DNA of 63,424 bases from an uncultured Gemmatimonadales bacterium (GTDB lineage Bacteria; Gemmatimonadota; Gemmatimonadetes; Gemmatimonadales; GWC2-71-9). The stretch is taken from positions 1-63,424 of the forward strand of contig CAWJMT010000006.1 in NCBI GenBank assembly GCA_963844035.1, written 5' to 3'. A program made the translations under genes and the position numbers. Below the pieces are notes generated by a model. It made no database searches and was not told where the DNA came from. It saw nothing but the letters and a program-made list of their open reading frames with translations. Of this stretch, positions 31,936-57,292 are shown piece by piece. The first letter of the stretch is position 1. Each line of letters opens with the position of its first letter.

Positions 31936-31953
31936 TGTAACATATCTGCAACA
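31936..31953. promoter_or_regulatory. Putative sigma54-activator binding site (TGT-N12-ACA)
   Basis: TGTAACATATCTGCAACA; weak GG-N10-GC motif at 32038-32052 downstream. Confidence 0.5.
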
Positions 31954-32136
31954 GTGCGGGCTCGGGCTCCCAGCCGGGTGAAAAAATTTGGCCAGGCAAT
32001 TCCGCTTCGGAGTCGCCTGTTTCTTGCAATCCGCGCCCGGCATGTGGAACGCGGGAAGAAGGGTGAAGAGCTACGTCGGCCGGCCCCAGGCCGCCGTGAG
32101 TCCGGCTCCGCTGCCCGCGCCTGTCGCCGCGGGCAA

Positions 32137-32641
32137 ATGCCCGGGTCCTGTTCCCGGACGAATTCACCAAAGACGACGAACGATCTGCCGGCGGCCCCCA
32201 CCAGGCGCCGCGCCTTTGGCAGGGTCTCGGGCGCGTCTCACGGCTACAGCGCGTTGGGACTGCTCGCGGGGTCGGGCCTGATCTACCTCGGTGCCGTGCT
32301 GGCACCCGCCATCGCACATCCCCTCACCCCCGACCCGGCCAAGCCGGCGGCGCTGGTGCCGACGCCGCTCGAGCGCCTGGATCGGACTCGCCGACACGCT
32401 GGCCCTGGCGACTGGCGCGTTCGACCTGCGCCTGCGCCTGTTCCAAGGCCACCAGATGCAGTGTTCCGACCTCGCCCGCGGCCTCGTGGTCGTCGAGGAA
32501 CGGTGGGCGGAATACAGCGCGGCGCGGGCAGGAGTCGGAACGGTTCAAGACTCGGCCCGCATCACCCTCGACCGGACGCTGTACGCCGGCGTGGACGCCA
32601 CGGAACGCCAGTTCGAGCGCTCCAAGTGTCCGAGACCGTGA
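32137..32641 (+). CDS. Hypothetical membrane/secreted protein; frameshifted, start uncertain
   Basis: Hydrophobic segment ALGLLAGSGLIYLGAVLA, then helical C-terminus ending SKCPRP; GTGA coupling to next gene. Confidence 0.5.
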
Positions 32642-34149
32642 GCCGGCCCTCATGGAGCCGCGCGGCGCGAACCCTCGTGCTGTGCGGCATCGCGGGCGGG
32701 TGGGCGCCAGGCGGCGGCTCAGGGTACTGATCCGCTGCGCAAGACCGACGTGGTTCGCCTGCTCGCGAGCCCCGTGATCAGCCGGAGCGAGATTGCGGCG
32801 CTGATTCGGCGCAACTGCCTCGCGTTCAGCCCTACGGAGCGGGACTGGGCCGATCTGCAGAGCCTGGGAGCGGATCCGGAAGTCCTCGGCAGCGTCAGCG
32901 CCTGCACGGACCGGAGCAAAGCTCGCGAGATCGCACCCGCCAGCGCGTTCACGGTTGTCCCTCTCACCACACGCATTGTGACCCCGCCCGACACGGACGC
33001 GAGCGTTCGCATCCAGGTCAAGCGAGGCGGCATCGCAGAAGCCGGCGTCGCGCTCATACTGCGTGGTGCCAGCGACATCCAGGGTGTCACCGACCAACGT
33101 GGTATGGCTGAGTTCGCCCTGCGGGCGGGACGGGTGGCAGGCACGTATTCGCTCAGCGTCCGCCTCGCGGGGGCGGCGCCTTCGTCCCGGGACCCCGTCG
33201 TCGAACTCGTCGTCCAACCTGCCGCACCCGCAGTGGCGGAGTTCGCGCCGACCCGGGTGACCATGGACTCGGCCGACGCTGGGCCGGTGAATCTCGAGGT
33301 GGTGGTCAGGGATGCCTTTGGAAACGCGGTGCCGGGCGAGGCGGTGGGGCTGCGCGGTGAAGACCCCGAGATGAACCTGAGCCTCGAGGGGGTGCGCACC
33401 GACTCACTCGGTCGCGCCGTATTCGTGATCGCGCCCCGGACAATCCGGCGCGCGGGCCCGGTGGCGATTGTGGTGCGTGAAGCGACGCTGGCTTCACTGC
33501 GCGCGGCGTTCGCGGTTCCGGCCAGCTCGCAGAGTCGCTTTGTCGCGGGGAGCGAGCAGGTCGGCATGGCGGGAACGCAGGTGAACGCTCCGCTCGTGTT
33601 TCAGGTGAGAGCCGGGTCGGGGCGGCCGCTCGCCGGCCGCGTGGTGGCATTCACCGCTCAGAACGCCGAGGTCACGCCGGACCATGCGATTTCGGACGGA
33701 GCCGGCCTCGCTCAGGTTCAGGTGACGCTGGGGCCGAAGGCCGGCGCTGCCGTCGTGATCGCGTCCGTGGATTCAGTGCAAACGAAGGCGACGCTCGCAG
33801 GTCCAGCCTGCGGGGCCGGCCACCGTGATCATCGAGCACAATCAGGGTGCGGGTCGACGGTGGGCACCTCGCCGTTCCCGCCGATGCGCCATTCGCGCTC
33901 AGTATCTCCGCCCAGGACGAGTACGGCAACGCGGCACCCGTCGCAGGCCTCGCGCGTGTGCTCGAGCAGATGCGGAATCGGTTCAACGCGCGTTCGACGC
34001 TGCTCAGAATGGAAAGCGTGCAGTCGGACAACTGGGTGACGACGGTGACGTTCAGACCATTGCGACGGGGTACGGCGGCGTTGACGCTCGCGGATGCCAC
34101 CGTATCGGTGGACGTGGGGGGCCGCGCCGGCCCGGGTTCTAGCCGCTAG
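32638..34149 (+). CDS. Secreted protein with a small N-terminal helical domain and invasin-like Ig (Big_1) domains; frameshifted
   Basis: Signal-like N-terminus; VTDQRGMAEF, VRDAFGNAVPG, RTDSLGRAVF, ISDGAGLAQV, QDEYGN. Confidence 0.65.
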
Positions 34150-34584
34150 GCGCGACGGTCGGTCGCCGGACGCTCCGCCGCCCGCGACACCAGGGCGAGC
34201 CAGGCCGTGATCTGCGGTAGGGAAAACGGCTTGCGGAAGGTCGTGTGGTGTCCCCGTTCCAACCACACCCGCACGTCGGGGGCGTCGGCCTCGCCCGTGA
34301 TGAACGCGATGCGCCCTTCGAGGTACGGCCAGCGGTGGATGATGACGAGGTACAACGCCAGCCCCGAAATCCCCGGCAACCGGACGTCCAGCAGGATCCC
34401 ATCGGGCGACTCCGAGGCGAGCCGCGCATAGGCCGCATCGGCGTCGGCCACCGTCAGCACGCGATACCCCATCGGGGTCAGCACACTCTCGAGCGCCGAC
34501 CGGAGCGATGCGTCGTCGTCCACGATCAGGAGCGTATGCGGGAGGCCGAGCAGCGGGCCGCTTCGCCGGGGAGTGGGGGCACAT
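34146..34584 (-). CDS. Single-domain response regulator (REC)
   Basis: LLIVDDD, ILLDVRLPGISG, FITG, RKPF; TAATG coupling with the kinase. Confidence 0.85.
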
Positions 34585-35787
34585 TATTTCTGGGGGCGGC
34601 GCGTCCGCGCGCCCGCCGGGGACGCGGTGCGCGGGGGCTGACACATCGGAAGATTCAGATCGAAGTAGAAACGAGTGCCCCACCCGCGGCGGGTTTCGAC
34701 CTGTAGCTGGGAGTCCATCGCGGCCACCAGCTTCTGGCACATCGCGAGCCCGAGGCCGGTCTGCGAGAACGCCTGCTCGCTGCGCCCGGAGCTGCGCCGC
34801 AGCGGTTGATACAGGCTGCTGACGATCTCTGGATCGATGCCCCGTCCACTGTCCCGCACGGCGAACTGAATGCCGGACGGCTCCCTTCTCCTCCGTCACG
34901 ATCTCCACGTACCCCTCGCCCGTAAACTTGAGGGCGTTCGTGGTGAGGTTGAGGAGCACGCGGCTCAACGCCACGGGATGACCCATGCGATAGTCGGAGG
35001 TCGGAGGCAGCAGCCGGACGGCCAACCGCTTTTCTTCCGCGATCGGTCTCACGATATCGCGCACCGACTCGAGCATGGCGGTCACGGAGAACGGCGTCGG
35101 CTCCTTCTCCATCAGCTGGTCCCCACCGCGCGCCAACTCGATGACGTCGCTCGCGACCGAGCTGAGACCGAGTGCCGCACCGTAGATGAGGCCCAGCTGG
35201 CGACGCTGCACATCGTTCACCGGGCCGCTCTGCTCTCGCTGCAGGGTCTCCGCGAGAAACAGGATGGACGTGAGCGGTGACCGAAGGTCGTGCGCGATCG
35301 CCACGAGCAAGTCGAGCCCGTTGGTCCCCGATACGCGGTCGGAGAAATGCTGGGCCCAATCGCCCTCGGACGCTTCGCGGACGCGCTCGAGGCCTGTGAG
35401 GATCGCGGGGATCTCGGTGTGTGTGGCCCTGGCATCCGACCAGCCGCGGATCACTTCGGCGCGGAACAACTCCAGCACGCGGCGTCCGTGGACCGAGCGC
35501 AGTCGCTCGTCCACCGCGACGGCTCTGTCCTCATCGGCCTGGATCTGTTGCAGGGTTCCGGCGAGCAGGCTGACGAGGCACGCCACCTCGGCGGCATCGG
35601 CCGTGTCGCTTCCCGCGGCGTGCCAGGCCTCAATGACTCCGTCGGCCGCTATCTGAAGTACGGGCGAGAGCGGGCCGACCGGGTCGTCGCCGGCCTTGAC
35701 CACCTTCGAAAACGAATGGCCGCCCCCTCCCGAACCGGCAGCTCGGGCGCGCGCGACCTGCGGACCTGAACTTCGATTTTGCGGCAT
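34584..35787 (-). CDS. Soluble sensor histidine kinase (HisKA + HATPase_c), frameshift ~34885
   Basis: AHDLRSPLTSI, NLTTNALKFT, DSGRGI, TGLGL, GWGTRF; no TM helix seen. Confidence 0.88.
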
Positions 35788-35837
35788 TGAACCGTGATAA
35801 GGGCAGGGGTGAATATGTCCCGGCCCCGGCCAGTCCG

Positions 35838-36950
35838 CTAGACGGGAGCTTGGGGTCCACCACCCAGGAGGGTGGGATCCTGACCACGAAACCGGGGGGG
35901 GTGGAGAAACCGGTCCTGGTGGGACATGGCCGGGGTGTATTGGCGAATGTGCGGCAAGCTCGTCTCGACGCAGGCAGTCTGGAACGCCGTGGAGGCTCGG
36001 GTGAGCAGGTCCTGAGCCCGAACCCGGGTGGCACCCGCGTCGTCCACGGCCTCAAACCCTCCCCGCACCTTCACCGGCGGCACATCCGAGCCCGCGGGTG
36101 TGCGCGTCTCAACCAGCCACGCGAGCCGCTGCGCCAGCCGTGCAGCCCCGATCGCCCGGGTGCCGGGAGCGAGTACCGCGAACTCCGTCTCGCTCCAGCG
36201 CCCGATCACATCCGACAGGCGGCCGTGGTTGCGGAGCACTTTCGCAACGTGCTGCAGCACGCGCGCTCCACCGGGCGTATCCTGCTCAGGACTGGGGTCA
36301 ACGCCGAGCACGACGCATGCAAGTGACTGGTGGTGCCGCTCCGCCTCGGCCAGCAGCTCGCGCGCCCGGTACTCGATACCGCGCACCGCGTAGAGCCCGC
36401 TGACGGTGTCGAGCAGCCCGTCCGTGCGGGCCCGGTCCGCCTCCACCTTCACGCTCACGAATCCGTCGATCCTGGCGATCAGCTCCTGCGCGTTCAGCGG
36501 GAACGCCAACACGTCCCAAGCGCCGGCACGCAGGCCCGCGACGCGATGCTCGACCAAGGCAGGGGCGCCGGAGACGATGATAATCGGCGTCCCCGCCGGA
36601 ATGGTCGCGTCCTGACGGAGTCGGCGGCACGTCTCGACGGCATCGGCCTGGGGTGACCCGACGAGAATGATGTGCCACTCGCCCCCGGGGCCGACCTCCG
36701 GGGCAGGCGCGTCATCGGCCGCCTGCACCACGTCGTAGCCGGCCGGTGCGAGGATGCTCTCCAGTGCGCCCCCGCACCACTCGTCTGCCCCGACAATGAG
36801 CGCACGCCGAACGGAGGGCCGCGGTTGGTGCGAGCTCAGGATCTCTCCCCAGGCAAAAAGGGTGGTACGTGACGACGGCGCAGCGCGGGCGCGCAGCCGA
36901 TAGACACTCCGTGGGGGAGCGGCTCGGCGAGGAGAGTCGCTGATACTCAC
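35838..36950 (-). CDS. Pseudo-receiver + degenerate GGDEF protein; ends uncertain
   Basis: REC-like fold lacking the Asp (IILVG) and Lys (AFP); DTVSGLY...RLSDVIGRWSETEF. Confidence 0.8.
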   Translation of the reverse strand: MSISDSPRRAAPPRSVYRLRARAAPSSRTTLFAWGEILSSHQPRPSVRRALIVGADEWCGGALESILAPAGYDVVQAADDAPAPEVGPGGEWHIILVGSPQADAVETCRRLRQDATIPAGTPIIIVSGAPALVEHRVAGLRAGAWDVLAFPLNAQELIARIDGFVSVKVEADRARTDGLLDTVSGLYAVRGIEYRARELLAEAERHHQSLACVVLGVDPSPEQDTPGGARVLQHVAKVLRNHGRLSDVIGRWSETEFAVLAPGTRAIGAARLAQRLAWLVETRTPAGSDVPPVKVRGGFEAVDDAGATRVRAQDLLTRASTAFQTACVETSLPHIRQYTPAMSHQDRFLHPPRFRGQDPTLLGGGPQAPV

Positions 36951-37830: not shown

Positions 37831-38613
37831 TCAGGGAGTGATCACCAGATCACCGTGATGGTGTAGATGGTGATCGGGATCGTCAGCAGAATCGCTACCG
37901 TCTGGACGGTGGTGTACCAATCGCGCTTGCCGCGGAATGTACAGCCGGTCGCCGGCACGGAGGTTGAGCGCGTCGAAGGTGCGCCCGGAGCGCACCGCGT
38001 TCTCCAGCGTGAAGCCATGCAGCACGGTCACGCCGGCGCGCTCGACGCGCGCCTTCCCGAGGTGCGCGTTCCGGGTCAGTCCGCCGGCCGCCGTCAGCGC
38101 ATCCATGATGGGCATCTCCGGCGCGAGGGCATAGAACCCCGGGTGGGCCACGTCGCCTTCGATGGCCACGCGAATCAACGGCTGCACGCTCACCACCGGC
38201 GTCCGAATGTAGCGCGCGAGTGCATAGGTCAGGCGGTCCGGAAGCTCGGTGCGCAGCACGCCCGTCAGCGGGATCACTCCGATCTGAGGCAGGCTCAGAC
38301 TCGTTCATCATCCCCACCGTGAAGGTGTCGGAGAGCTCCTTTTCGCCCTCCACGATGATCAGGATGCGGTCGCCCGGGCGGAAATCGCCGCTGTCCAGGC
38401 GCGCGCGGATCAAATTCGCTGCATCCCCGGACGCCCTCGCGCAGCTGCTGTTCCAGCATCGCGCGCGTGGCGTAGGCGGGGCCAGGATTGCCGCTGCTGC
38501 GCGGCGGCGGCGGGGAGGAATCCGAGCAACAGGCACCCGGCCACCCCCACCCACCGGGTGCCGACGACGAGGCTGCTGACAATCCCGGGCAGGACTCGGC
38601 GGCCCACCATCAT
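37831..38613 (-). CDS. Small SLBB-domain polysaccharide export protein, frameshifted
   Basis: Signal peptide, GDFRPGDRI, IPLTGVLRTEL, IEGDVAHPGFY, DALTAAGG, LRAGDRLYIP; ATGA overlap with the glmS stop. Confidence 0.75.
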
Positions 38614-40430: not shown

Positions 40431-41050
40431 GTCAGTCCATGTCTCCTTTGGTGGTCTCGAGCAGCGGACCCGCCGCGCTCACGAGTCCGAAGCGGGCGAG
40501 CTGCAGGTGCTTCCGCAGCAGGCGCTCCGCGAATCCCTCCGCCGTGACAATGGCGCCGCAGGCGCCGCATATCAGATCCCCAAGACGCCGCGCGCCCCAC
40601 ACGCGCGCCCCGGACGCGTCATCCCGCCCGGCCACTCCGTCGTGGCGATATGGCTCTCACACCGTTCACAGAACATCCGCGAGGTTTTGTCTCCTTCCCA
40701 TGCGCGGCCATGTGTCAAGATTTGGGCCCACCACGCCCGGGGCGGTTCCCCCTCGGAAACTGACTGGTGTCGCAGGACTTACGGGCGGACGGCCGCGCGC
40801 TGATCGACGCCCCGCCCCGATCGCGTTGCAGGTTCGTGTCAGGGACCGCCGGTGCTGTGGTCGCGGCGCATCAGTTTCACGATGACGCCGCGCGACCGGG
40901 CCCCGAATCGTCTGCTCGCGACGCGGCGGGGTCGTGCGCGGCTCGCGCATGAGTCCTGCATGCAGTAGTCACGCGCGGCACCCCGGCACGGCGAGCACCA
41001 GTCCCTCTCCACCGCTGCCCGCGCAATTCACCATTTGAGGAGATGGGACC

Positions 41051-41986
41051 GTGCAGACAAAGATGGGCCCCGCTCGCCCGGCGGTGGTTCTCGTCGCGAG
41101 CAAACAGGAATGGACCAGCCGCTCGCTCGAGAGCATTCTTGCTCCCAGCGGTTACGTCGTCCTCGCGAGCTACACGGCGCAAGGCACGCTGCTCCGCGCC
41201 AAGCGCGACCAGCCCGATGCGATCATCGTCGACGCGCACCTTCCCGACTCGAGCGGCCACGACCTGTGCAAGCGCTTGCGCTCCGAGGGACTGATCACGC
41301 CCAGCACGCCGCTCCTCGTCACCCTGCCCAAGCCCGCGACCCGGCGCGACCGGTTGGCCGCACTCCGTGCGGGCGCCTGGGAGTGCCTGAGCGAGCCGTT
41401 CGACGCGGAGGAGACCCGCGCCATCCTGGACGCGCTGGTGCCGGCCAAACTCGATGCCGACCAGGCGCGCTCCGAGGGTCTGATCGACGATGCGACGGGG
41501 CTCTACAATATTCGGGGGCTCACGCGCCGGGCCCGCGAGCTCGCCTCGCACGCCACCCGCACCCGGGCGCCGCTCGCCTGCGTCGTCCTCGCCCCCGAGC
41601 CGAATCCCGACTCGACGCCGGCCAGCGGAGAAACGCCCTGGCCGGTCGTGCGGCAAGTCGCACGGCACCTGAAAGCGACCGGGCGGCGCTCCGATGCGAT
41701 CGGACGCCTTGGGGCCGGTACGTTTGCCGTGGTTGCGATGGATACCAATGCGGGACAGGCGCGCCAGCTGGCGAGCCGCTTGTGCGACGGGCTTCTCGCC
41801 GCGAACGAGACCGGATTCCAGATGCACGCCGGGTGTCACGGCGTGAGCGACTTCCATGCGGCGTCGATCGACGCCGTCGAGCTGATGTTTCGAGCGACCG
41901 CCGCGCTGCGACAGGCGCGGACCGATCCCGCCGGTGGCTGGCTGCGGGACTTCGAAGACAGCGACGCCCGGCCCCGCCCCGCCTAG
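41051..41986 (+). CDS. Pseudo-receiver + degenerate GGDEF protein (paralogue of 35838-36950)
   Basis: REC-like (VLVASK, IIVD, LSEPF); DDATGLYN...RRSDAIGRLGAGTF. Confidence 0.85.
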   Translation: MQTKMGPARPAVVLVASKQEWTSRSLESILAPSGYVVLASYTAQGTLLRAKRDQPDAIIVDAHLPDSSGHDLCKRLRSEGLITPSTPLLVTLPKPATRRDRLAALRAGAWECLSEPFDAEETRAILDALVPAKLDADQARSEGLIDDATGLYNIRGLTRRARELASHATRTRAPLACVVLAPEPNPDSTPASGETPWPVVRQVARHLKATGRRSDAIGRLGAGTFAVVAMDTNAGQARQLASRLCDGLLAANETGFQMHAGCHGVSDFHAASIDAVELMFRATAALRQARTDPAGGWLRDFEDSDARPRPA

Positions 41987-44388
41987 AGCATCCCTCGGCG
42001 CCCGCGGGCCTCGACCGCCGATCCCTCATCCGTAGCGGAGTACCCGGTCAAGTAGGTGTAGTGCTCGTACCCGCCCCCGGGCCGTACATCGTTCACAATC
42101 GCGCCCAACAGTCTGATCGGCAGGTGCTCCAACGCTCCCAGCTTGGTCCGGGCGAACTCGAGGTTCGTCGTCCCGCTGCGGAGCACCAGCAACACGCTGC
42201 CCGTGATCGAACCCAGCGTATACGGGTCGACGCCCGAGCCGAGCGGCGGGCTGTCCACCAGGATCACCTGGTACCCGCTGCGCAGCCGCGCCATGATCTC
42301 CACCATCGCTTCGGAGGCAAGCAGCTCGGGTGAATCGCGAAACCGACTGCCGGCGCCGATGAAGTCGAGCGACGGCCACGCCGTCTTCTGGATGATCCCG
42401 TTGAGCGGTACCTGACCGGCGAGCGCGTCGGTCAACCCCGACTTGCGTGACGCCCCGAGCGCGCGGTGCAACGCTCCGCGACGGGCGTCGCCATCGATGA
42501 GCAGTGTGCGATATCCAGCTTCCGCGTAGGCCAGTGCAAGATTGGCGGACACGAGGGATTTGCCGTCTCCGGCGCCCGGACTCGTGATCGTGCACACAAT
42601 CGGCGCCGTCGGGCCAAAGGCGTGAGTCAGATTCAGCCGGATGGTGCGCATCGCTTCGATGACGTGGTGGACATGCGCATCGTCGGGCCCGGCTCCACGA
42701 TCCTGCACGTGGGGCAGCACCCCCAGGATCGAGAGCCCCATCTTGCTCGTCACCTGCGAGGGGTACCGCATCCGTGGATCCACGTTGTCCGCCAGCACAG
42801 CGCCCGCCAGCCCAAGGCCCAACCCGGCGGCAAAGCCCATGACGATCAACCGCGAAGCAGTGTCCTTGAGCGGCTCCTGAGGAGGCACCGCCGCATCGAG
42901 CACGCGTATGTCCGCGACGCTGCTCGCCTCCGCGAGGCGCGCTTCGTCGTATCGTTGCTGCACGCTCGTGTAGAGACCGGCCGCCATGTCCATGTCGCGA
43001 TGCAGCCGCGCCTCTTCGAGCATTCGCTGCGGGACTCCCTGCAGCTCGCGACTCCCGAGCGCGATCTGCGGTCCCAACGACCGCTCGCGTGCGGCAAGCT
43101 CTGTCAGGAGCAGCGCGGGCCAAATTGGGAACCGTGCCCCGCTCCAGGACCTCGATGCGCTTCGTCGCCTGCTGTACGGACGGATGATCCTCGGTGTAGG
43201 TGTACAGCAGCGCGCGCCGCTCGGCCTGCTTGACCATCAACTCCCGCAGGGCCTGACTCAGGTCGCCGGAGCGCTGCACGGCTCCGATGAAGGTCAAACC
43301 CTCGATGGAGCCGCCTGAATCGCCCAACTGCGCCAACACACGTTCGATGGCCTCCCGGTCACGATGCAACTGGTCGCGCTCGAGCTTCAAAGCGAAGAAG
43401 TCCCCGTACGCCGGGGATTTGCCCTGCGGTGCCGCCGCCACGTTGACGTCGGGAGCCAACGTGATCGTGCGAACGCGGAATGCCTCAAACGCACGCTCCG
43501 CGCGATGCAGGTCCATGCCGGCCGCTCCCAATTGGTCGCTCAGGAGCTTTGCCACCTCGGTCAGCTTGGCCCGCTTCAAGTCCGTCGCGACCGCGACGTA
43601 GCGATGCGCGACCGCATTGACGGTCTTCGCGACCTGGGTCGGATCCTGACCCGTGAGGGACAGTCGCAGGAAGGTCGCCGTCCGGATCCATCGTGACGGT
43701 GAGACCCTCCCCCAACGCCTTTGCCGCATCGCGCAACGGCCGAACCGTGAAGGTCAGCTCGCTGCCCGGTTTGAGGACGTCCGCTGCCGGGGCCCATTGA
43801 AAGCCGAGCTCCCGGCCGATCGAGTCTCCAACGCTGCCGCGCTGCAGCTCCGCACCGTCCCGGTTCTGCAGCGAGAAGGTGTCTCCCGCCTGCGCCACCA
43901 CCAGCCGATACACGCCAGGATGGAAGACTTCGCCGACCGTGAACGACGAGAAAGACCGCGCCGGTCCCAGGCGCAGGCCGCAGATAGAATCGGAGATCCC
44001 GGGCTACTTCGTCGAGCACGACGTAGGATCGCAGCAGGTTCACCCAGGCGTACGAGTCGAAAAGCTGGTTGCTCCCGATCGGCCCGCGACTGCCACCGTT
44101 GCCACCGTTGCGAGGCTCGCTGGATTGAATCCAGATGGTCGCCTGCGCCTGATACTTGGGAGGAAGCAGGTGGGCCCCGCCCACGCCACCGAGCGTTCCC
44201 AGTACGGTGACCGCGAGGATCCACCACTTGAACCGCCATACCGCCGCCACCTAGCGCCGCCAATCGAGGCCTTCCTCCGGCGCGACGCCGACCGGGTCGA
44301 GCATCGCCGCCCGAGCGGCGTGCGGCACGTAAGGGGCGAGACTGCGCGAGGTGTCGGGATGAGCGTCGTCGGACATGATTTCTGGCAT
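41983..44388 (-). CDS. wzc: Polysaccharide biosynthesis tyrosine autokinase; frameshifts and one in-frame TAG near 44251
   Basis: DWRR.VAAVWRFKWWI, YTEDHPSV, TSPGAGDGKS Walker A, LIDGDARR, LVDSPP, C-terminal Tyr cluster YEHYTYLTGY. Confidence 0.88.
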
Positions 44389-44400
44389 GCCCAACCTCTA

Positions 44401-44416
44401 CGCAAGGGCGATGCCT
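44401..44416 (-). promoter_or_regulatory. Putative sigma54 -24/-12 promoter of wzc
   Basis: AGGCATCGCCCTTGCG (GG-N10-GC with TTGC). Confidence 0.6.
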
Positions 44417-44476: not shown

Positions 44477-44536
44477 TGTGGCACACCAGCGACATTGCCG
44501 AGTGAGGGCCGGATGACCTGTCGTACATCCGCCACA
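44477..44536. promoter_or_regulatory. Tandem putative activator sites (TGT-N12-ACA x2, 42 bp apart)
   Basis: TGTGGCACACCAGCGACA (44477-44494) and TGTCGTACATCCGCCACA (44519-44536). Confidence 0.6.
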
Positions 44537-44693
44537 TCGCTCTTGACAGCTGGCCGAACTGCCTATATGACATTGACTTACTGAACCGATCCTCCCGGCG
44601 CGAACCGGCCCGATCCGTGCCAGAGAGTGTCTCAGTGGCCCCGTAGTAAGCGCACTCGAGCGCTTACCCCTGGCATGGAGGTTGTGGAAGCTG

Positions 44694-46228
44694 ATGCGCG
44701 CAACGACGCCGGACACCGAACCCGCAGCCGGCCAGACCCGGACTGCCCCCTCGCGCGATGTGGTGGGGTTACCGCAGTTGACCCCCGAGATGAAGGCGAG
44801 CTATCCGCCTCCTGGTGGCGGACGACGAGCGCACGCTCCGGGAGAGCTGCGCGAGCGTGCTCGAGTACGAGGGCTACCAGGTCAGCGTATGCGGCCGCGG
44901 CGACGAGGCGCGCGAGATGTTGAAGCGCAAGAAGTTCGATGTCGTGCTGCTGGATCTCTACATGCCGGAGGTCCCCGGCATGAAGCTGCTGCGGACCTGC
45001 CTGGAGGCGCACCCCGACACGATCGTCATCGTTATCACGGGCAACCCGTCGGTCGACTCGAGTCTCGAGGCCCTGCGTGCCGGCGCCTGGGACTATCTCC
45101 CCAAGCCGTTTTCGGCGACGCACCTGCAGATCCTGCTGGGCCGGGCCGCTCATGCGATCATGGTGGCCCGCGAGTCGCACGCGCTGCAGGCCGACTTCGC
45201 CCGTGAGCACGGGAACAGCGAGCGGGTCACGGTACTGGGAGCGGCGCCGGCGTTCCGCCGGGCCGTCGATCTCGCGCGCCGCGTGGCGCCGACCGACGCC
45301 TCCGTCTTTATCACCGGCGAAAGCGGCTCCGGCAAGGAGCTGATCGCGCAGTTCATCCACCACCACAGCCGGCGCAGCAGCCGGCCGTTGGTGGCCGTCA
45401 ACTGCGCGGCGCTCCCCGAGGCGCTGCTCGAGTCGGAGATGTTCGGTCACGTGAAGGGCGCGTTTACCGGCGCCGTGCGCGACAAGCCCGGCCTGCTCGA
45501 GGCGGCGAACGGCGGCACCTTGCTGCTCGACGAGCTGGTCGAGATGTCGAAGCCGATTCAGGCCAAACTGCTCCGCGTGATCCAGGACGGCGTGGTGCGG
45601 CGCGTGGGCAGCGAGACGACGGACGCGGTCGTGAACGTGCGCTTCATCGCCGCGACCAACTGCATTCCGGAGGAGGCGGTCAAGGCCGGGACGCTGCGCG
45701 AGGACCTGTACTATCGGCTGCGCGTTGTCCCGATCCACGTGCCGCCGCTGCGGGAGCGTCCCGGGGATGTGCGTCTGCTGGTGCAACACTTCCTGGGGCA
45801 GTACTGGGTCCGCCACCGGGGACCCGGCACCCCCCTCCCCCAGCTCACCGACGCGGCGGTTCGCTCGCTGCGCGCGCGTGCCTGGAAGGGCAACGTGCGC
45901 GAGCTCGAAAACGTCGTCGAGCACATGGTCGTCCTGCTGGAGCCGGGCGCTCCGATCCGGCCCGAGGACATCCCCGCCTTGGGAGAGCAGGTCAGCGACG
46001 AGGGCCGCCCGTATCTGCCTTCCGAAGTGACGACCGAAGAGCCCTACTACGCCGCCCGGGATCGCCTGGTCGCGGCCTTCGAGCTGCACTATCTCACGCA
46101 GCTGGTGACGGAAGCGGGTGGGAACATGTCGCGAGCCGCACGCGTCGCCGGCGTGGATCGCACCACGTTGTACCGTCTCATGGAGCGGCACGGGCTTGCA
46201 GCGCAAGATTCCGACGTCGGAGGAGTGA
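44694..46228 (+). CDS. Sigma54-dependent response regulator (REC-AAA+-Fis HTH); both termini reconstructed over frameshifts
   Basis: VADDE, LLDLYMP, GESGSGKE, NCAAL, GAFTGA, REDLYYRL, WKGNVREL, AGVDRTTLYR. Confidence 0.93.
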
Positions 46229-46244
46229 CGGCGGACACATTTCT

Positions 46245-46284
46245 TGTAGCACCCCACCCACAAGCGCCGTGGCGCCGTGCGACA
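46245..46284. promoter_or_regulatory. Putative activator sites upstream of the sugar transferase
   Basis: TGTAGCACCCCACCCACA (46245-46262) plus CGTGGCGCCGTGCGACA (one base short). Confidence 0.5.
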
Positions 46285-46346
46285 AACCGGTGCCGACCCT
46301 GCTCCAAATAGCGTTGATTTGAGCCTAGCCGCCTCATCGGCGGCAG

Positions 46347-46362
46347 AGGCACGGCGCCTGCA
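46347..46362 (+). promoter_or_regulatory. Putative sigma54 -24/-12 promoter
   Basis: AGGCACGGCGCCTGCA (GG-N10-GC). Confidence 0.6.
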
Positions 46363-46397: not shown

Positions 46398-47100
46398 GTG
46401 ACCAGTGTTCGGATCCCCCAGGCGAGCGCCCGGTACCGGCGCGTGTCCCAGCGCGAGCCGTCCGAAGGGGTGCGCCGTGCCTTGAACGTGACCGTCGCGG
46501 CGACCGGCGTCATCCTCACCGCCCCCGCCATGGCGGCCATCGCGCTGCTCATCAAGCTGACGTCGCGCGGCCCGGTCTTCTACACGCAGCTGCGCGTCGG
46601 TATCGACCGCCGCACGCCGGGAGAGCCCACGGGCAACTCCCGCCGCCACGTTGACCACGGCGGCAAGCCCTTCAAGATCTACAAGTTCCGTACGATGACC
46701 GCTCGCGACGAAGCCACAGCGCGACGAGGTCTGGGCCGCGCGCCAGGACCCGCGGGTGACGTCCATCGGCCGGATTCTCCGCCAGTATCGGCTCGACGAG
46801 CTGCCGCAGCTCCTCAACGTGCTGCGGGGCGAAATGGACGTTGTCGGCCCCCGGCCCGAGCAGCCGTCGATCTTCGCCCGGCTGCGGCAGGAGATCCACC
46901 GCTACGAAGAACGCCAGCGCGTGCGGCCGGGCATCACCGGCTGGGCGCAGATCAACCAGAGCTACGACAGCTGCGTGGACGACGTGCGGCGCAAACTCCA
47001 GTACGACCTCGAATACATCCACCGCCAGTCCGCCCTCGAGGACCTGAGGATCATGGTGCGGACGCTCCCGGCAGTGATCCTCAAGCGCGGCGGCTGGTAG
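46398..47100 (+). CDS. Priming sugar transferase (Bac_transf), frameshift ~46720
   Basis: YKFRTM, DPRVTSIG, LDELPQLLNVLRGEMDVVGPRPE, RPGITGWAQI. Confidence 0.9.
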
Positions 47101-47204
47101 TCGGCTCGCTCCGTTCACCTCGTAGACCATGACGTTGAGCGCGGACCTGATGCAATGATGTGACACCCGCGCCCGCCAAAGCAGGCACCCCCCCCTGAGA
47201 ACCC

Positions 47205-48624
47205 GTGTCCTCCAAGCACAACCGTGGTCCAGTTCCTGCGTTGCTCGCCCGCATGAACGAGATTTCCGCGCCGCCAACGCTCGCAGGTCGCGCCCCCGAG
47301 GCGAACGTCGCGCAACGCACGTTCGCCAAGTCCAAGGTGCTGCAGGCGATCGCTCACGAGCTCGTCCCGGGCGGGTGTCACACGTACGCCAAGGGGGACG
47401 ACCAGTACCCGGAGCTGGCCCCCGGATTCATCGCGCGCGGCCGCGGCTGTCACGTGTGGGATGCGGATGGCGACGAGTACATCGAATACGGCATGGGGCT
47501 GCGTTCGGTCACCCTGGGACACGGCCACCCCTCCGTGGTGGATGCCGCGTACCGGGCGATGCTCAACGGCACCAACTTCACGCGCCCGTCGCCGTTCGAG
47601 GTCGAGTGCGCGCAGGCGTTCCTGAGCCTGATCGACGGAGCGGAGATGGTGAAGTTCGCCAAGAACGGCTCCGATGCGACGACCGCCGCCGTGAAGCTGG
47701 CCCGCGCCTACACCGGGCGCGACATGGTCGCGATCTGCGGGGAGCACCCATTCTTCTCGACCGACGACTGGTTCATCGGCAGTACGCCGATGGCAGCGGG
47801 GATCCCCCAGGCCATCCAGCAGCTGACGGTCAAGTTCCACTACAACGACCTGGAGAGCGTGCGGGCGCTGTTCGACCAGCATCCGGGGCGAATTGCCTGC
47901 GTGATGATGGAAGCGGCCACCTCCGTCGGGCCCGCGGATGGCTTTCTCGATCAGGTCCAGACCCTGTGCGCCGCCCACGGCGCGTTGTTCATTCTCGACG
48001 AGACGATCACCGGATTCCGTTTCCACCTGGGCGGCGCGCAGAAGCTCTACGGTGTGACTCCGGATCTCTCGACGTTCGGCAAGGGGATGGCCAACGGGTT
48101 CCCGCTCGCCGCCCTGGCCGGCAAGCGCCACATCATGGAGCGGGGCGGCCTGCGCCACACGGAGCGAGCGGGTGTTCCTGCTCTCCACCACGCACGGCGC
48201 GGAGACGTCCGCCCTGGCGGCCGCCATCGAGACGATGCGGATCTTCCGGGACGAGGGCGTGGTGGACGTGCTGCGGGCTCAGGGCGAGCGCCTGCGGCGG
48301 GGCGTCACCGAGGCCGCGTGCGCCAGCGGGCTGGAGCAGCACGTCGGCGTGCTCGGCAATCCGGCGAATCTCGTGTACTTCACGCGCGACCGCGACGGCC
48401 TGCCGTCACAGCCGTTCCGGACGCTGTTCCTGCAGGAGCTCATCCGTCACGGCGTGCTTGCGCCGTCGTTCGTCGTGAGCCATGCGCACCAGAACGATGA
48501 CATCGACCGCACCATCGACGCGGTGGCGGAGGCCCTGACGGTCTACCGGAGAGCACTCGACGACGGGGTGGAGCACTACCTGGTCGGCCGAGCGGTCAAA
48601 CCTGTTTTTCGGAGATTCAACTGA
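47205..48624 (+). CDS. Class III PLP aminotransferase (GSA-aminomutase-like, polysaccharide-cluster type), frameshift ~48165
   Basis: PGGCHTYAKGDDQYP, KNGSDAT, LDETITGFR, TFGKGMANG, STTHGAE. Confidence 0.85.
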
Positions 48625-49922: not shown

Positions 49923-49932
49923 GGCGATTCGC

Positions 49933-50483: not shown

Positions 50484-51798
50484 CCGCGTCGCTCCGTCGC
50501 TGCCCCGGCGGTCACCCTCGGCGAGCAGATGCACGGGCTGATCGCCGAGCTCTATCCCATCTGCCGCAGCATCACCGGCGATGGCGTACGCGAGACCCTG
50601 CGCCGGCTGCAGGACGACATTCCGCTCGAGATCCACGAGGTCCCGACCGGCACGCGCGTGTTCGACTGGACGGTCCCGAAGGAGTGGAACATCCGCGACG
50701 CGTACGTCCGGAACTCGCGCGGCGAGCGCGTCGTCGACTTCCAGCAGTCCAACCTCCACGTCGTGAACTACAGCGTGCCCGTGCGAGCGCACGCTGACGC
50801 TCGCGGAGCTGAGGCCGCATCTCCACAGCCTGCCGGACCATCCCGACTGGATCCCGTATCGGACGACGTACTACCAGGAGAACTGGGGCTTCTGCCTGAC
50901 GCACCGCCAGCTCGCCGAGCTGCCGGACGACACCTACGACGTCGTGTATCGACTCGACGCCTCGCGCCGGGTCACCTGACCTACGGGGAGTGCTACCTGC
51001 CCGGGCGAGCGGCGGACGAGATCCTGATCTCCTGCCACGCCTGCCATCCGTCGCTGGCCAACGACAACCTGTCGGGCGTCGCGGTGGCGGTCGCGCTCGC
51101 GCGGCACCTCGGCACGGCGCCACGGCGCTACTCGTACCGCTTCCTGTTCATTCCCGGCACGATCGGCTCGATCACGTGGCTCGCCCTGCACGAGGCCGAG
51201 GCAGCGCGGATCCGCCACGGTCTCGTGCTCACGTGCGTCGGCGACCCCGGCACGCCCACGTACAAGCGGAGCCGCCGCGGCGACACGCTCGTCGACCGCG
51301 CCGCGCAGCACGTGCTCGAGCGCGCGGGCGGCGAGCACGAGCTGCTCGACTTCTCCCCGTACGGCTACGACGAGCGCCAGTACTGCTCGCCGGGGTTCGA
51401 TCTCGCCGTCGGCTGCTTCATGCGGACCCCGCACGGCCGGTACCCGGAGTACCACACCTCCGGCGACGATCTCGCCTTCGTCTCGCCCGAGAGCCTCGCG
51501 GACACGTTCGCCAAGGTGCGTGACGATCCTGGAGGTCGTCGAGCAGGACGCGCGCTATGTCAATCAGAACCCCAAGTGCGAGCCGCAGCTCGGGAAGCGC
51601 GGGCTGTACACCGCCGTGCGGGGCGGTGCCCTGCCCGACTACGAGTTCGCGCTGCTGTGGGTGCTCAATCTGTCCGACGGGCGCCACAGCCTGCTGGACA
51701 TCGCGGAACGGTCGCACATGCCCTTCGGCGCGGTCCGGCAGGCCGCCGAGGCATTGGTGGCACATGGCTTGCTTCGGCCGGAGCACACCGGCGCATGA
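50480..51798 (+). CDS. DUF4910-like aminopeptidase-fold protein with C-terminal HTH, frameshifted
   Basis: YPICRSITGDG, DWTVPKEWN, CHPSLANDNLSG, GYDERQYCSPG, YPEYHTSGD, CEPQLGKRGLY. Confidence 0.85.
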
Positions 51799-52580: not shown

Positions 52581-52605
52581 ACCCGACTCGACCGGAGGTA
52601 GCGAC

Positions 52606-53689
52606 GTGAAGGTCTTGGTGACAGGTCACAACGGCTACATCGGCTCCGTCATGGTCCGCATGGTGCAAGCCGCGGGGCACGACGTCGTCGGATTGGATAC
52701 CTACTTCTTCGAGGACTGCACGCTCGGTCCGCCGACGACCGACGTCCCGGCGCAGCGGCTCGACCTGCGGGACGTCGAGCCGGCGCACCTCGGGGGATTC
52801 GACGCGGTCATCCACCTGGCGGCGCTCTGCAACGATCCGTTGGGCGACCTCGATCCGGAGATCACGTACGACATCAACCACCGCGCCTCGGTCCGCCTCG
52901 CACGGGCCGCCAAGGCCGCGGGGGTACAGCGCTTTCTGTTCGCGTCCTCGTGCAGCCTGTACGGCGTCGCCGGAGAGGACATGCTCGATGAGCAGGCCGC
53001 CTTCAACCCGATCACGGCGTACGGGCGATCGAAGGTGCTGGTGGAGCAGGACGTGGCTCCACTCGCCGACGACCGCTTCACCCCGACGTTCCTGCGCAAC
53101 GCGACGGCGTACGGCGTGTCGCCGCGGCTGCGCGCCGACGTCGTCGTCAACAACCTGGTGGCGGCGGCGCACACGACGGGCGAGATCCTCGTCCAGAGTG
53201 ACGGTACGCCCTGGAGACCGCTCGTCCACGTGGAGGACTTCTGCCGCGCGTTCCTGGCGGTGCTGCACGCCCCGCGGCCGCTCGTGTCCAACGTGGCCTT
53301 CAACGTCGGGCGCAGCGAGGAGAACTACCGGGTCAGCGAGCTCGCCGAGTTCGTGCGGCAGGCAGTCCCCGGCAGCCGCGTGACGTACTCCCCGAATGGG
53401 GCGCCCCGACCCGCGCAGCTACCGGGTCGACTGCTCGAAGATCGCGGCGACGCTGCCGGAGTTTCAGCCGCAGTGGACGGTGCCACGCGGGATCAAGCAG
53501 CTGGTCGAAGCGTACCGCACCAACGGCCTGACGAGCGAAGACTTCGGCGGGAGCCGGTACATGCGCGTGAGACAGATCCAGGGATTGCAGCGAGCAGGGC
53601 GAGTGGACGGCCAGCTGCGCTGGCAGCCCGCCGCGACCGAATCGCTCGGCGGCGCCCTGGCCACCAGTGACACGGGAGCGGCGATATGA
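52606..53689 (+). CDS. NAD-dependent epimerase/dehydratase, frameshift ~53400
   Basis: VTGHNGYIG, HLAALCNDP, ASSCSLYG, YGRSK, RNATAYG, DGTPWRP. Confidence 0.9.
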
Positions 53690-54549
53690 AGGTCGTTCTG
53701 TTCTGCGGGGGTCTCGGCATGCGGCTGCGGGACTACGCCGACAACGTGCCCAAGCCCATGGTGCCGATCGGGTATCGACCGATCATCTGGCATGTGATGA
53801 AGTACTACGCCCACTTCGGGCACAAAGACTTCATTCTGTGCCTCGGCTACCGTGGAGACATGATCAAGCACTACTTCCTCAATTATGAAGAGTGCGTCTC
53901 GAACGATTTCGTCTTGACCGACGGTGGCGCGAAGCGCGAGCTGTTGAACAGCGACATCAGCGACTGGCGCATCACGTTCGTTGAGACCGGCCTGAATTCC
54001 AACATCGGGCAGCGGCTCAAGGCGGTGGAGCCGCACCTGGCCGGCGAGGAGATGTTCCTCGCGAACTACTCGGACGGGCTCTCGGACCTCCCGTTGCCCG
54101 ATCAGATCGAGCATTTCCGGACGCACGACGCGGTGGCGAGCTTCCTGTCCGTCAGGCCGAACCTGAGTTATCACTTCGTGACCACGGACAATGGTGGTCG
54201 GGTCACGAGCTTCCGCGACATCGCGCAATCCGGTCTCCGCGTGAATGGCGGCTTCTTCGCCCTCAAGCAGGACATCTTCCGCTACATGAAGGATGGCGAC
54301 GAGCTGGTGCTGGAGCCCTTCGAACGCCTCGTGCGCGCGAAGCAGCTGCTCGCCTACGATTACGACGGCTTCTGGCTCCCCATGGACACCGCCAAGGACA
54401 AGAAGCGCATTGACGACCTGTACGCGCAGGGGAACCCACCCTGGGAGGTCTGGCGCAGGGATGCCGCAACGCCCCGAACCGACGGCCTCCGGCTTCCCTC
54501 GCGTTCTACTGCATTGCGGCCGTTGGTGCATGCTGCCTCTGACGCTTAA
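53686..54549 (+). CDS. Glucose-1-phosphate cytidylyltransferase-like
   Basis: LFCGGLGMRL, PKPMVPIG, LCLGY, NGGFF, GFWLPMDT. Confidence 0.85.
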   Translation: MKVVLFCGGLGMRLRDYADNVPKPMVPIGYRPIIWHVMKYYAHFGHKDFILCLGYRGDMIKHYFLNYEECVSNDFVLTDGGAKRELLNSDISDWRITFVETGLNSNIGQRLKAVEPHLAGEEMFLANYSDGLSDLPLPDQIEHFRTHDAVASFLSVRPNLSYHFVTTDNGGRVTSFRDIAQSGLRVNGGFFALKQDIFRYMKDGDELVLEPFERLVRAKQLLAYDYDGFWLPMDTAKDKKRIDDLYAQGNPPWEVWRRDAATPRTDGLRLPSRSTALRPLVHAASDA

Positions 54550-55191
54550 CACGCCGGCCGGCCGAGCCACACGGATCTTGTGCCTCGGCGCGCATTCGGA
54601 CGACATCGAAATCGGCTGCGGCGGGACCGCTGTTGCGGCTGCTCGCTGACCGCCCCACGACGGAAGTCCACTGGGTGGTGTTCAGCGCTGCGGGCCCGCG
54701 TGCCAACGAGGCACGCAAGAGCGCGCGGCTGTTTCTCGCCGGCGCCAAGCGGCGGCGCGTGGTGGTGAAGCGGTTCCGCGATGGCTTCTTCCCGTACGAC
54801 GGTGCCAAGATCAAGGACGCCTTCGAGGCGCTGAAGGCCATTCCAGAGCCGGACGTGATCTTCACGCACTACGGGGCCGATCGGCACCAGGATCACCGGG
54901 TGATCTCGGAGCTCACGTGGAACACGTTCCGTAACCACATGATTCTCGAGTACGAAATCCCCAAGTACGATGGGGACCTGGGCTCGCCCAACGTGTTCGT
55001 ACCGCTCGATGAGGCGACCCGGCCGCCGCAAGACGAGCCACCTCTCGTCGGCGTTTGTGTCGCAGCGGGGCAAGCAGTGGTTCTCGGATGACACGTTCGC
55101 TGGGCTGATGCGGCTGCGCGGCGTCGAAGCGTGTGCCCCGAGCGGCTATGCCGAGGCGTTCTACGCGCGCAAGGTCGTGGTCGGCGCATGA
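54530..55191 (+). CDS. PIG-L family deacetylase, frameshifted
   Basis: LGAHSDDIEIGCGG, DRHQDH, YEIPKYDGD, AEAF. Confidence 0.88.
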
Positions 55192-55979
55192 CCGGTCTAC
55201 TCTGCGGGAATTGATCCAGCGTCGCGAGCTCCTCTACATCCTCGTGTGGCGGGAGATCGCGGTGAAGTACAAGCAGTCGGTGATGGGATTCCTCTGGGCG
55301 ATCCTGATGCCCGCGCTGATCGTGATGGCGGGGATCGTCGTCAAATACGCGTTCGCCACCGTGTCCGGCCAGCCGCTCAGCAGCGCCGACATCGCGAATG
55401 TGAGCGTGAAGGCGGTTCCCTGGGCGTTCTTCGTGTCTTCGATCCGGTTCGCCACCAACAGCCTGGTCACCAATCGTGACCTGGTGACCAAGGTGTACCT
55501 GGCCCGGGAAGTCTTTCCGGTCGCCTCGGTGATGGCCCAGTTCGTGGACTTCGCCGTTGCCGCCGCCCTCCTGGCCGTGGTGCTGGTCATCGCCGGAGTG
55601 GGGTTCAGTCGTCCAGCTCATCTGGGTACCGGTCCTCGTGCTCCTGCTTGCCCTGCTCTGCATCGGCCTGGGGATCTTTCTCTCGGCCGCGAGCCTGTTC
55701 TTCCGGGACGTCAAGTACATGGTCGAGGCGGTCATTACGTTCGCCATCTTTTTCACCCCGGTGTTCTTCGACGTGGCCATGCTTCGGCAGGTGGGCGGAC
55801 ATCCTCATGCTGAATCCGGTCGCGCCGATCCTCGAGGGCCTGAGCGCCGCGGTCGTCTATCACCGCGTGCCGCCCGTCGGGTGGGTAGCGTACAGCGCTG
55901 CCGTCGGCCGCGCTGATCTGGTTCCTGGCGAACGCGTTCTTCCGGCAGGATGGAGCCCTATTTCGCGGAGACGATCTAG
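55188..55979 (+). CDS. wzm: ABC-2 polysaccharide transporter permease, frameshifted
   Basis: REIAVKYKQSVMGFLWAIL, KVYLARE, FFRDV, FTPVFF, LNPVA. Confidence 0.85.
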
Positions 55980-55987
55980 GACATCCT

Positions 55988-57214
55988 ATGAGTGACGTCG
56001 TACTCGAGATGGATCACGTCTCCAAGAAGTTCAGGCGGGGAGAGATTCACGATTCCCTGCGTGATCTCATTCCGGCCCTGACCGGCGGCATGTTGCGACG
56101 CAGCCGGCAGGGCCCACCCGACAAGCGGGAATTCTGGGCCCTGGACGACGTGTCGTTCCAGGTCCGCCGGGGAGACGCCTTCGGCATCATCGGACGCAAC
56201 GGCGCCGGCAAGAGCACGATCCTCAAGCTGCTCAGCGGCATCATGAAGCCCACGAAGGGCGCGCTCCGCGTCAAGGGCTCGCTCTCGGCTCTGATCGAGG
56301 TGAGCGCCGGGTTTCATCCGGACCTGACCGGTCGGGAGAACATCTTCTTGAGCGGCGCCATCCTCGGCATGTCGCGCGAGGCGATCCGCGCGAAGTTCGA
56401 CGAAATCGTGGAGTTCTCGGGACTCGCTGAGTTCATCGACACGCCGGTCAAACGCTACTCGTCAGGGATGTTCGCGCGCTTGGGGTTTTCCGTCGCGGCG
56501 CACGTCGAGCCGGATGTGCTGATCATCGACGAGGTCCTGAGCGTGGGCGACTACCTCTTCCAGCAGAAGTGCGTCGAGCGCATGCATACCGTCCTGGCGA
56601 ATGGCGCGACGATCGTGTTCGTGTCCCACAATCTGCGGGCCGTGTCCGACCTGTGTACCCGCAGCCTGTTGCTCAATCGCGGTCGCGCGGTGATCGATCG
56701 GGCCGACCAACGACGTCATGCAGCGCTACCTGAACGGCAGCGACGGCCCCCGGCGGCCCGCCGACCGACCAGGAAGCGTTCGTGGCTCGCACTACGGTTC
56801 GGGATGAGACCGGCGAGGGCTTTGAACTTCGAGTCCGGGACAGAAGGTCTGGGTGGACGTGGAAGTCGCCGCCCGCGTTCCGTGCCGCGGCCTGGCGGTC
56901 GTGCTCGAGTTCAGGGACGAGAACCACTACGAAGTGTTCAACACCTCGACGGAGCGTCTCGGGCATCCTGCCTTCGCGATGGAGGCGGGGGAAACGGTCC
57001 ACTGCAGCTTTCGAGCTGGACCTGCACCTGGCGCCCGGGCACCTTCAACCTGGGAGTGTCGGTATACCGGTACGACATCGCGAAGGCATACGATCGCGTG
57101 TGCCCCGCCGCGACCATCTTCGTCACCTGCGACCGCGACGTCCGCGGCGCCGTGAACCTCTACCCCACCGCGGTGGTGCACGCGGACGCGACCGGCGACT
57201 CGCCCCGGCTGTAA
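55988..57214 (+). CDS. wzt: ABC polysaccharide transporter ATPase with C-terminal Wzt-C domain, frameshifted
   Basis: FWALDDVSF, GRNGAGKST, TGREN, YSSGMFARL, IIDEVLSVGD, VSH. Confidence 0.9.
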   Translation: MSDVVLEMDHVSKKFRRGEIHDSLRDLIPALTGGMLRRSRQGPPDKREFWALDDVSFQVRRGDAFGIIGRNGAGKSTILKLLSGIMKPTKGALRVKGSLSALIEVSAGFHPDLTGRENIFLSGAILGMSREAIRAKFDEIVEFSGLAEFIDTPVKRYSSGMFARLGFSVAAHVEPDVLIIDEVLSVGDYLFQQKCVERMHTVLANGATIVFVSHNLRAVSDLCTRSLLLNRGRAVIDRADQRRHAALPERQRRPPAARRPTRKRSWLALRFGMRPARALNFESGTEGLGGRGSRRPRSVPRPGGRARVQGREPLRSVQHLDGASRASCLRDGGGGNGPLQLSSWTCTWRPGTFNLGVSVYRYDIAKAYDRVCPAATIFVTCDRDVRGAVNLYPTAVVHADATGDSPRL

Positions 57215-57260
57215 CACGCCTGCCACACTTCCAGGGAATGCCTGACGCAGGATAGCCGCA
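57210..57260. promoter_or_regulatory. Tandem putative activator sites, 33 bp apart
   Basis: TGTAACACGCCTGCCACA (57210-57227) and weaker TGACGCAGGATAGCCGCA (57243-57260). Confidence 0.5.
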
Positions 57261-57276
57261 CCACGGCCCCGCTTGC

Positions 57277-57292
57277 GGGCATGGACCTTGCC
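57277..57292 (+). promoter_or_regulatory. Putative sigma54 -24/-12 promoter of the Big_2 lipoprotein genes
   Basis: GGGCATGGACCTTGCC (GG-N10-GC with TTGC). Confidence 0.6.

Follow-up and report, generated by a model that had tools for sequence, protein, structure and literature searches.

A conserved palindrome and predicted sigma54-type promoters upstream of surface-polysaccharide genes in Gemmatimonadales, with an adjacent NtrC-type activator as the probable regulator

The stretch of DNA analysed here (the window) comprises 63,424 nucleotides (nt) from an uncultured Gemmatimonadales bacterium (GenBank assembly GCA_963844035.1, contig CAWJMT010000006.1, contig C6 in our numbering), whose genome (G000) spans 3.47 Mb and is 84% complete. 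It carries an exopolysaccharide module in which a palindrome recurs upstream of several genes, next to boxes of the -24/-12 type read by sigma54. The module holds a wza-like polysaccharide export gene with an SLBB domain (37831..38300, minus strand), a gene for a receiver joined to a degenerate GGDEF domain (RR-GGDEF; 41051..41986, plus strand; no GGDEF motif, and QEW at the acidic positions of the receiver), a wzc-type polysaccharide co-polymerase/tyrosine kinase in several frameshifted pieces (41983..44390, minus strand, start approximate), an NtrC-type enhancer-binding protein (44694..46228, plus strand), hereafter the activator, and a frameshifted priming sugar transferase of the wcaJ/wbaP type (46398..47100, plus strand). 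A frameshifted histidine kinase (HisKA and HATPase_c; 34584..35787, minus strand), 66% identical to the kinase of locus L085, lies 9 kb from the activator and is orthologous to the kinase encoded just after the activator in most relatives. The relatives are Gemmatimonadales, their genomes carrying G numbers and their loci L numbers; among them the order is wcaJ, wza (leftward), RR-GGDEF (rightward), wzc (leftward), then activator and kinase (rightward), with wzc divergent from the activator in 47 of the 74 loci whose flanks were long enough. In 55 of 66 loci the kinase comes immediately after the activator. Twelve fetched loci add an exosortase (TIGR02602 over cut-off in L085) and an EpsI-like gene. 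In a second arrangement (L043, L051, L086, L088, L094, L097, L100, L102, L104, L107, L108 and L111) there is no wzc beside the activator and RR-GGDEF runs straight into activator and kinase; most of these loci keep the RR-GGDEF promoter box described below, with its non-G base at -25. A contig labelled as a Burkholderiales metagenome-assembled genome (L036) also has the module, with an activator 79% identical and Gemmatimonadales-like promoters, which may reflect mis-binning or transfer.

Frequent single-base insertions or deletions (indels) split many genes of this assembly, rpoN among them. An independent run yielded a contig, about 95% identical, that is without the extra bases at 43114, 43676, 43954, 44800 and 46195, and true pseudogenisation of the locus is unlikely because this relative is free of the indels and because core genes, rpoN included, are likewise broken; the gene breaks in the window are not to be read as pseudogenes. 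Once the two apparent 1-bp assembly insertions at 44800 and 46195 are discounted, the limits of the activator in a first-pass annotation of this DNA are right. By the same token the sites at 46245 and 46268 are intergenic, as that annotation had them, although as assembled they fall inside an open reading frame (44815-46311). Part of the coding DNA of this frameshifted genome escapes the gene caller, which bears on the intergenic and coding counts given for it.

The palindrome was recovered de novo from two panels of relatives, both excluding G000. In 28 orthologous upstream regions it took the form TGTTGCG-N4-CGCAACA, with a log-likelihood of 244 against 45-52 in three shuffles, and it fitted best at 18-20 columns (165 at 17 columns, 244 at 18). 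The 47 wzc-divergent loci (the gaps between wzc and activator, in part overlapping the first panel) gave TGTnGC-N6-GCnACA, with about 10 bits of information in a matrix made from relatives only. This unbiased discovery bears out the tandem sites with -24/-12 boxes proposed at first pass; the consensus given there, TGTNGCA-N4-TGCNACA, has to be replaced by TGTnGC-N6-GCnACA, as none of its five main sites matches it exactly (one or two mismatches each). Those sites had been called five exact copies of TGT-N12-ACA. The window holds 12, and the genome 378; the named five (31936, 44477, 44519, 46245 and 57210) do rank first to fifth among window matches to the relatives' matrix, at 12.7-16.7 bits, compared with 2.5-10.0 bits for the other seven. 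Six window matches reach 12.5 bits where the rate elsewhere in the genome predicts 1.6 (Poisson p 0.006), and column-shuffled matrices gave at least five such matches in 2 of 200 trials. Strict matches in G000 number 9 at the N6 spacer and 0-3 across N3-N9. The strict pattern TGTNGYA-N4-TRCNACA was set aside as too rare to discriminate (16 of 41 genomes, with a similar control).

Outside the gap used for training, 37 of 55 sites of at least 13 bits in 1.1 Mb are intergenic, against a background of 12.4% (p 4e-21, overstated, like the other cross-genome p-values, by kinship among genomes that are not independent). These held-out sites mostly precede wza/RR-GGDEF, wcaJ and other sugar genes, and de novo discovery in the DNA downstream of them returns a sigma54-type box (111, against 57-63 when shuffled). 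Additionally, the 62 site pairs in the relatives' gaps are spaced periodically at 21-22.5 base pairs (bp), that is, in steps of two helical turns: 26 lie 19-24 bp apart, 18 lie 41-46 bp apart, 14 lie 54-72 bp apart and only 4 lie 28-34 bp apart. Two of the spacings noted at first pass, 42 and about 22 bp, are thus typical of relatives and the third, 33 bp, is atypical. In G000, 11 pairs of site plus box were found, compared with 1-4 for 12 shuffled matrices. An origin as chance matches in AT-richer intergenic DNA could appeal to a motif of only 10 bits with 12 exact TGT-N12-ACA copies in the window and 378 in the genome, and two elements, 57243 and 32038, do resemble chance; yet recovery de novo in relatives, positional conservation cluster by cluster, spacer specificity, periodic spacing and co-occurrence with the activator make this explanation very improbable overall, and for the five main sites it is refuted. 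The palindrome is conserved across Gemmatimonadales upstream of surface-polysaccharide genes.

The seven sites (31936, 44477, 44519, 46245, 46268, 57210 and 57243) and four GG-N10-GC motifs (32038, 44416 on the minus strand, 46347 and 57277) listed at first pass are all present in the DNA at those positions, and each cluster was compared with its counterparts in relatives. Boxes were scored with a matrix built from pilin promoters, blind at -25 and -15, with a pass mark of 8.5 bits (1 of 47 coding stretches and 4 of 79 shuffles pass). The first site (31936..31953; 16.7 bits) lies between hflX and a divergent two-gene unit for a small membrane protein and an Ig-like protein (Big_1, by Pfam of the G002 homologues), a frameshifted likely target at approximately 32100..34150 on the plus strand. 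A matching site is present in three of four same-genus loci (G002, G004 and G005), the fourth (G003) having another gene there and no site. The promoter proposed for this site, 32038, was rejected (5.0 bits, not conserved) in favour of a sigma54-type box with C at -25, TCGCCTGTTTCTTGCA (32013..32028, plus strand; 11.7 bits), 77 bp past the site, which aligns with the same element in G002 and has an AG form further downstream in G004 and G005. The other three GG-N10-GC motifs were upheld. Two elements were new to our analysis. Before the RR-GGDEF gene, a weaker palindrome (40856..40873; 10.8 bits) precedes a box with C at -25, GCGCATGAGTCCTGCA (40945..40960, plus strand), recognised from the relatives' upstream regions; in G072 (L241) a site stands 89 bp upstream of the same box. 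The other, at 44606, faces the activator gene.

The gap between wzc and activator holds two palindromes, 44477..44494 (14.4 bits) and 44519..44536 (14.2 bits), 42 bp apart. With the palindrome masked, the strongest motif on the wzc strand in the 47 relatives was yGGtaCc-N4-TTGCa, a -24/-12 box, which alignment places at 44401..44416 on the minus strand of the window (AGGCATCGCCCTTGCG), facing wzc. On the other side, a TTGACA hexamer (44543..44548, plus strand), 6 bp after site 44519, is a candidate sigma70 -35 element for basal expression of the activator; it is conserved in 5 of 7 aligned gaps and carries one substitution in the 95% relative. It is followed by the sigma54-type box facing the activator gene, CGGCCCGATCCGTGCC (44606..44621, plus strand), which at 7.4 bits is below the pass mark and is conserved in 6 of 7 aligned gaps. 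All 20 substitutions seen in the 95% relative lie outside both sites and both boxes (p about 0.04).

Before wcaJ, the palindrome at 46245..46262 (12.7 bits) is followed by a GG box, AGGCACGGCGCCTGCA (46347..46362, plus strand), with the L047 box at nearly equal distance; a site of at least 10.6 bits precedes wcaJ in all 12 loci examined. What had been listed as a weaker site at 46268 scores -7.4 bits in the 18-bp register and is better described as a half-site with 17-bp spacing and its right half in register (46268..46284), a form that L047 shares. A further candidate site of the window (47148..47165; 12.6 bits) is accompanied by a GG box at 47225-47240; the aminotransferase gene after this box has an in-frame ATG at the predicted +3 (window 47225-47253). 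The last cluster consists of a palindrome at 57210..57227 (13.4 bits) and a GG box, GGGCATGGACCTTGCC (57277..57292, plus strand), before genes for Ig-like (Big_2) proteins starting at 57359; in L047 a 17.2-bit site keeps the same 67 bp to the box. The second site proposed here, 57243 (8.9 bits), has no counterpart in L047, the single homologous promoter, and looks like chance. In addition, a perfect match to TGGCAC-N5-TTGC at 51758-51773, at the end of a coding piece and just before the gene at 51795, may be an internal promoter; a weak palindrome lies at 51671 (7.6 bits).

The base at -25 of these boxes differs from gene to gene across the relatives. Among wza regions, 21 of 26 pass the mark, with A at -25 in 17 of the 21 and GG in 3, G at -15 in 15, and T kept at -26. 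RR-GGDEF regions (40 of 53 passing) have C in 32 of 40 and GG in 3 of 40, and the wcaJ regions (11 of 12 passing) are mixed, with C in 6, G in 3, A in 1 and T in 1. The boxes that pass at wzc and facing the activator have G at -25 in 14 of 14 and 19 of 20 cases, respectively. The wzc boxes depart from the canon at -23/-22, and a matrix trained on them alone scores 46347 and 57277 poorly, so the promoter classes differ. Pilin promoters of the same order, taken from 44 upstream regions, are GG in 28 of 30; P-II genes, also considered as a control, lie mostly inside operons (12 upstream regions from 27 loci). G000 itself has seven pilin matches, and three tandem, near-identical pilin genes (C4:159654-161454, L176) have their own sigma54 boxes at 85-91 bp (GG, GG and AG). 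rpoN is present in G000, split by an indel, with an RpoN box identical to that of solved sigma54 chains, and a general relaxation at -25 of all sigma54 promoters in the lineage is ruled out by this identity and by the GG pilin promoters.

These non-GG boxes might have another owner. If the activator drove the GG promoters only (wzc, itself and some wcaJ) and the AG/CG boxes were operators of a second dimeric protein recognising GCAY-N5-RTGC, the -25 base would be expected to be fixed per gene rather than random, as it is, and the departure from T at -15 in wza boxes, the conserved spacer of the RR-GGDEF box, the near-symmetry of this box in some genomes and the canonical pilin promoters and RpoN box would follow as well. 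However, the AG/CG boxes point the same way as their genes, retain T at -26 in wza and, as the GG boxes do, stand 80-125 bp from palindromes; orthologous wcaJ promoters switch between GG, CG, AG and TG, the pilin paralogues of G000 do so between GG and AG, and the module contains no conserved DNA-binding candidate. We therefore hold this explanation to be rather improbable, even though ribosome-site-like stretches follow some AG/CG boxes and, by our own count, Desulfovibrio promoters are GG in 84 of 87 cases and TG in 3, with no AG or CG, in a set found with a GG-weighted matrix (PMC4641369). Of 17 wza loci (L061-L103), 14 have an in-frame ATG between the predicted +3 and +10, which under sigma54 control would give leaders of 3-10 nt and near-leaderless translation. 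Tentatively, and with rather less confidence than in the regulon itself, the promoters under this autoregulated activator may form a class of their own, in which each gene keeps its own -25 base (A in wza, C in RR-GGDEF, mixed in wcaJ) under an unchanged sigma54 that reads GG elsewhere. The supposedly near-invariant GG would then act as a per-gene dial for tuning and insulation, and some transcripts would have very short leaders.

The activator is an NtrC-type (group I) sigma54 enhancer-binding protein, judging from its domains: receiver (REC), AAA+ with GAFTGA, and a Fis-type helix-turn-helix with the recognition helix DRTTLYRL. In the L085 orthologue PF00072, PF00158 and PF02954 are all over cut-off, and PF00158 scores 217.9 bits in the window. 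Its motifs GAFTGA, GESGSGKE, LLLDE and LLDLYMP read intact, and we take them to be the GAFTGA, Walker A/B and receiver aspartate elements. Of 73 orthologues, 71 retain the helix as DRTT[LF]YRL. Among 40 relatives the activator was found in 28, each of which also has the wzc orthologue, and 11 of the other 12 were without that wzc too. In 200 genomes of the phylum, including one unpublished (G172) whose omission leaves the outcome the same, the activator was found in 121, and strict matches to the palindrome were four-fold commoner in these (386, or 3.2 per genome) than in the 79 others (61, or 0.8 per genome), against 251 and 121 for a reversed-pattern control; the direction of the difference is the same in each taxonomic layer. 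This tracking of the motif with the activator supports the suggestion made at first pass that the adjacent GAFTGA protein is the likely cognate factor.

Several observations weigh against this assignment. The genomes compared are kin, and in families f2 and f3 with the activator the control (80) exceeds the motif (57); in G000 the reversed pattern occurs 7 times, the strict one 9 times. Moreover, 23 of 32 strong intergenic sites of G000 have no nearby sigma54-like box by a relaxed pattern, the remaining 9 comparing with 1 of 26 coding sites and with 10% of random intergenic positions. Pass rates are low for the wzc (14 of 47) and activator-facing (20 of 47) regions, several wza boxes have behind them, at or before the predicted +1, purine-rich stretches that resemble ribosome sites, and G000 has seven other sigma54 activators. 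In G004 (98% complete) no activator or wzc was found, but the genome keeps conserved sites and boxes ahead of the gene divergent from hflX and of a second operon. Part of this list would suit a palindrome bound by a different, wider regulator, either another sigma54 activator or an unrelated factor, with the adjacent activator merely one of its targets: G004, the many G000 sites that lack a box, and the average of 1.6 strict matches still present in family f1 genomes without the activator, to which may be added that similar motifs need not imply similar binding domains (PMC4641369). We consider this unlikely in view of the four-fold enrichment, and because the densest site clusters flank the activator gene and the 29 other activator sequences read from five genomes that lack this one share no more than 42% identity and have different helices. 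In G002, which has sites and no activator, the absence is probably an assembly gap because the contig breaks off within glmS, immediately ahead of where the module would be expected.

On balance, the adjacent NtrC-type activator probably binds the palindrome, and would switch on the sigma54 promoters of the exopolysaccharide module. Direct observations are the palindrome and its spacing at intervals of about 21-22 bp, the -24/-12-type boxes with their orientation, the order of the genes and the joint occurrence of motif and activator; the following scheme is consistent with them. The sensor-less kinase would phosphorylate the receiver domain of the activator, whose dimers, on phased sites 60-125 bp from the promoters, would assemble the AAA+ ring and open the sigma54 closed complex. 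Targets would be the Wzy-type module (wzc, wza and wcaJ), the RR-GGDEF gene, the Ig-like surface proteins and probably the activator gene. Sites 44477 and 44519 may serve both divergent promoters, those of wzc and of the activator, and positive feedback would then act on top of a basal sigma70 promoter. Low promoter affinity is linked to tighter control, and on the simplest reading the non-G that the boxes of wza, RR-GGDEF and most wcaJ genes keep at -25 may mark deliberately weak sigma54 sites that fire only with the activator bound nearby, which would rank the genes and shield them from the seven other activators.

The arrangement resembles several known systems. In autoregulation by NtrC at glnAp1/p2, the activator sites lie beside a sigma70 -35 element, with a sigma54 box downstream of them that serves the operon of the activator itself; the layout here is the same, with sites that also face a divergent wzc promoter and with another motif and function. 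TIGR02915 and TIGR02916 describe PrsR and PrsK of the PEP-CTERM loci of Proteobacteria, which likewise pair an NtrC-type activator and a kinase in an exopolysaccharide locus with exosortase and EpsI-like genes, as in the 12 fetched loci, and in which the PEP-CTERM box is a palindrome, sometimes repeated, about 63 nt before a -24/-12 box (PMC1569441, PMC9850573). However, the PrsR motif has 17 nt and ends in TTTACA, compared with 18 nt here, the targets here are the export and priming genes themselves, and the activator scores 360.1 (window) and 375.9 (intact L047) against a TIGR02915 cut-off of 502.6. The kinase is short: the best TIGR02916 score in G000 is 86 bits versus 300, and the L085 kinase has no TIGR02916 match at 1e-30. 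Identity with PrsR was therefore rejected, on the TIGR02915 score, the absence of PrsK and the motif length. Exosortase and PEP-CTERM were not found in G000, at its 84% completeness and with its frameshifts, the PEP-CTERM search being silent in control genomes too. SypG of Vibrio fischeri, a REC-AAA-HTH activator in the syp polysaccharide locus, also serves several sigma54 promoters with a shared upstream sequence (PMC10162802, PMC5552954) and is phosphorylated when active in driving syp promoters (PMC10162802). It differs in its site, TTCTCANNNTGMDWN, and in its multi-step phosphorelay, and the accessible part of PMC10162802 does not mention non-GG promoters.

Related motifs are those of Desulfovibrio, whose regulons were found by co-localisation of activator and sigma54 promoter and where TGT-N12-ACA sites form a known group among such activators (PMC4641369). 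DVUA0057, DVU0110 and the TGT-N12-ACA group (for example DVU3023 and DVU0653) share TGT...ACA half-sites in tandem copies; the exopolysaccharide regulators DVUA0057 and DVU0110 use 17-bp sites, however, the inner bases of the 18-bp sites examined are CC/GG or AA/TT instead of nGC/GCn, and the recognition helices differ from DRTTLYRL (PMC4641369). Among the top-ranked matches listed from the open literature, with subscription journals outside, no paper described non-GG sigma54 promoters or this regulon.

Beyond the window, palindromes and boxes accompany a second polysaccharide cluster of G000 (C2:51662 and 55958; L032:9063 and 13214), with an asparagine-synthase-type amidotransferase, a GT1 gene and an ATP-grasp gene, one site facing boxes on both strands. 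Three near-identical stretches (L119:2001, L120:2001 and L128:2001; C35, C28 and C3) have a strong palindrome of 15-18 bits about 60 bp before an apparent tRNA gene, judged by eye, with no sigma54 box by the relaxed pattern. Canonical sigma54-type boxes at C5:58499 (minus strand), C3:156379 (plus strand) and C35:49903 (minus strand) precede genes which, from their N-termini, we take to be dnaK, clpB and a small heat-shock protein, which suggests sigma54 control of heat shock in the lineage.

Control of the cell exterior by sigma54 is a theme already established (PMC3162934; background in PMC5095919 and PMC11997794). The regulon described here is real and of known architecture, with a new activator family and motif, and it provides a first motif, activator and target list for the control of surface polysaccharide in an abundant, little-studied soil phylum. 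The gene-specific, conserved loss of G at -25 is a feature of specialist interest. If the AG/CG boxes are true sigma54 promoters, GG-weighted searches would miss a whole regulon, and the module would offer naturally occurring -25 variants that share a single activator, in which the role of sigma54 affinity in activator specificity would be directly testable.

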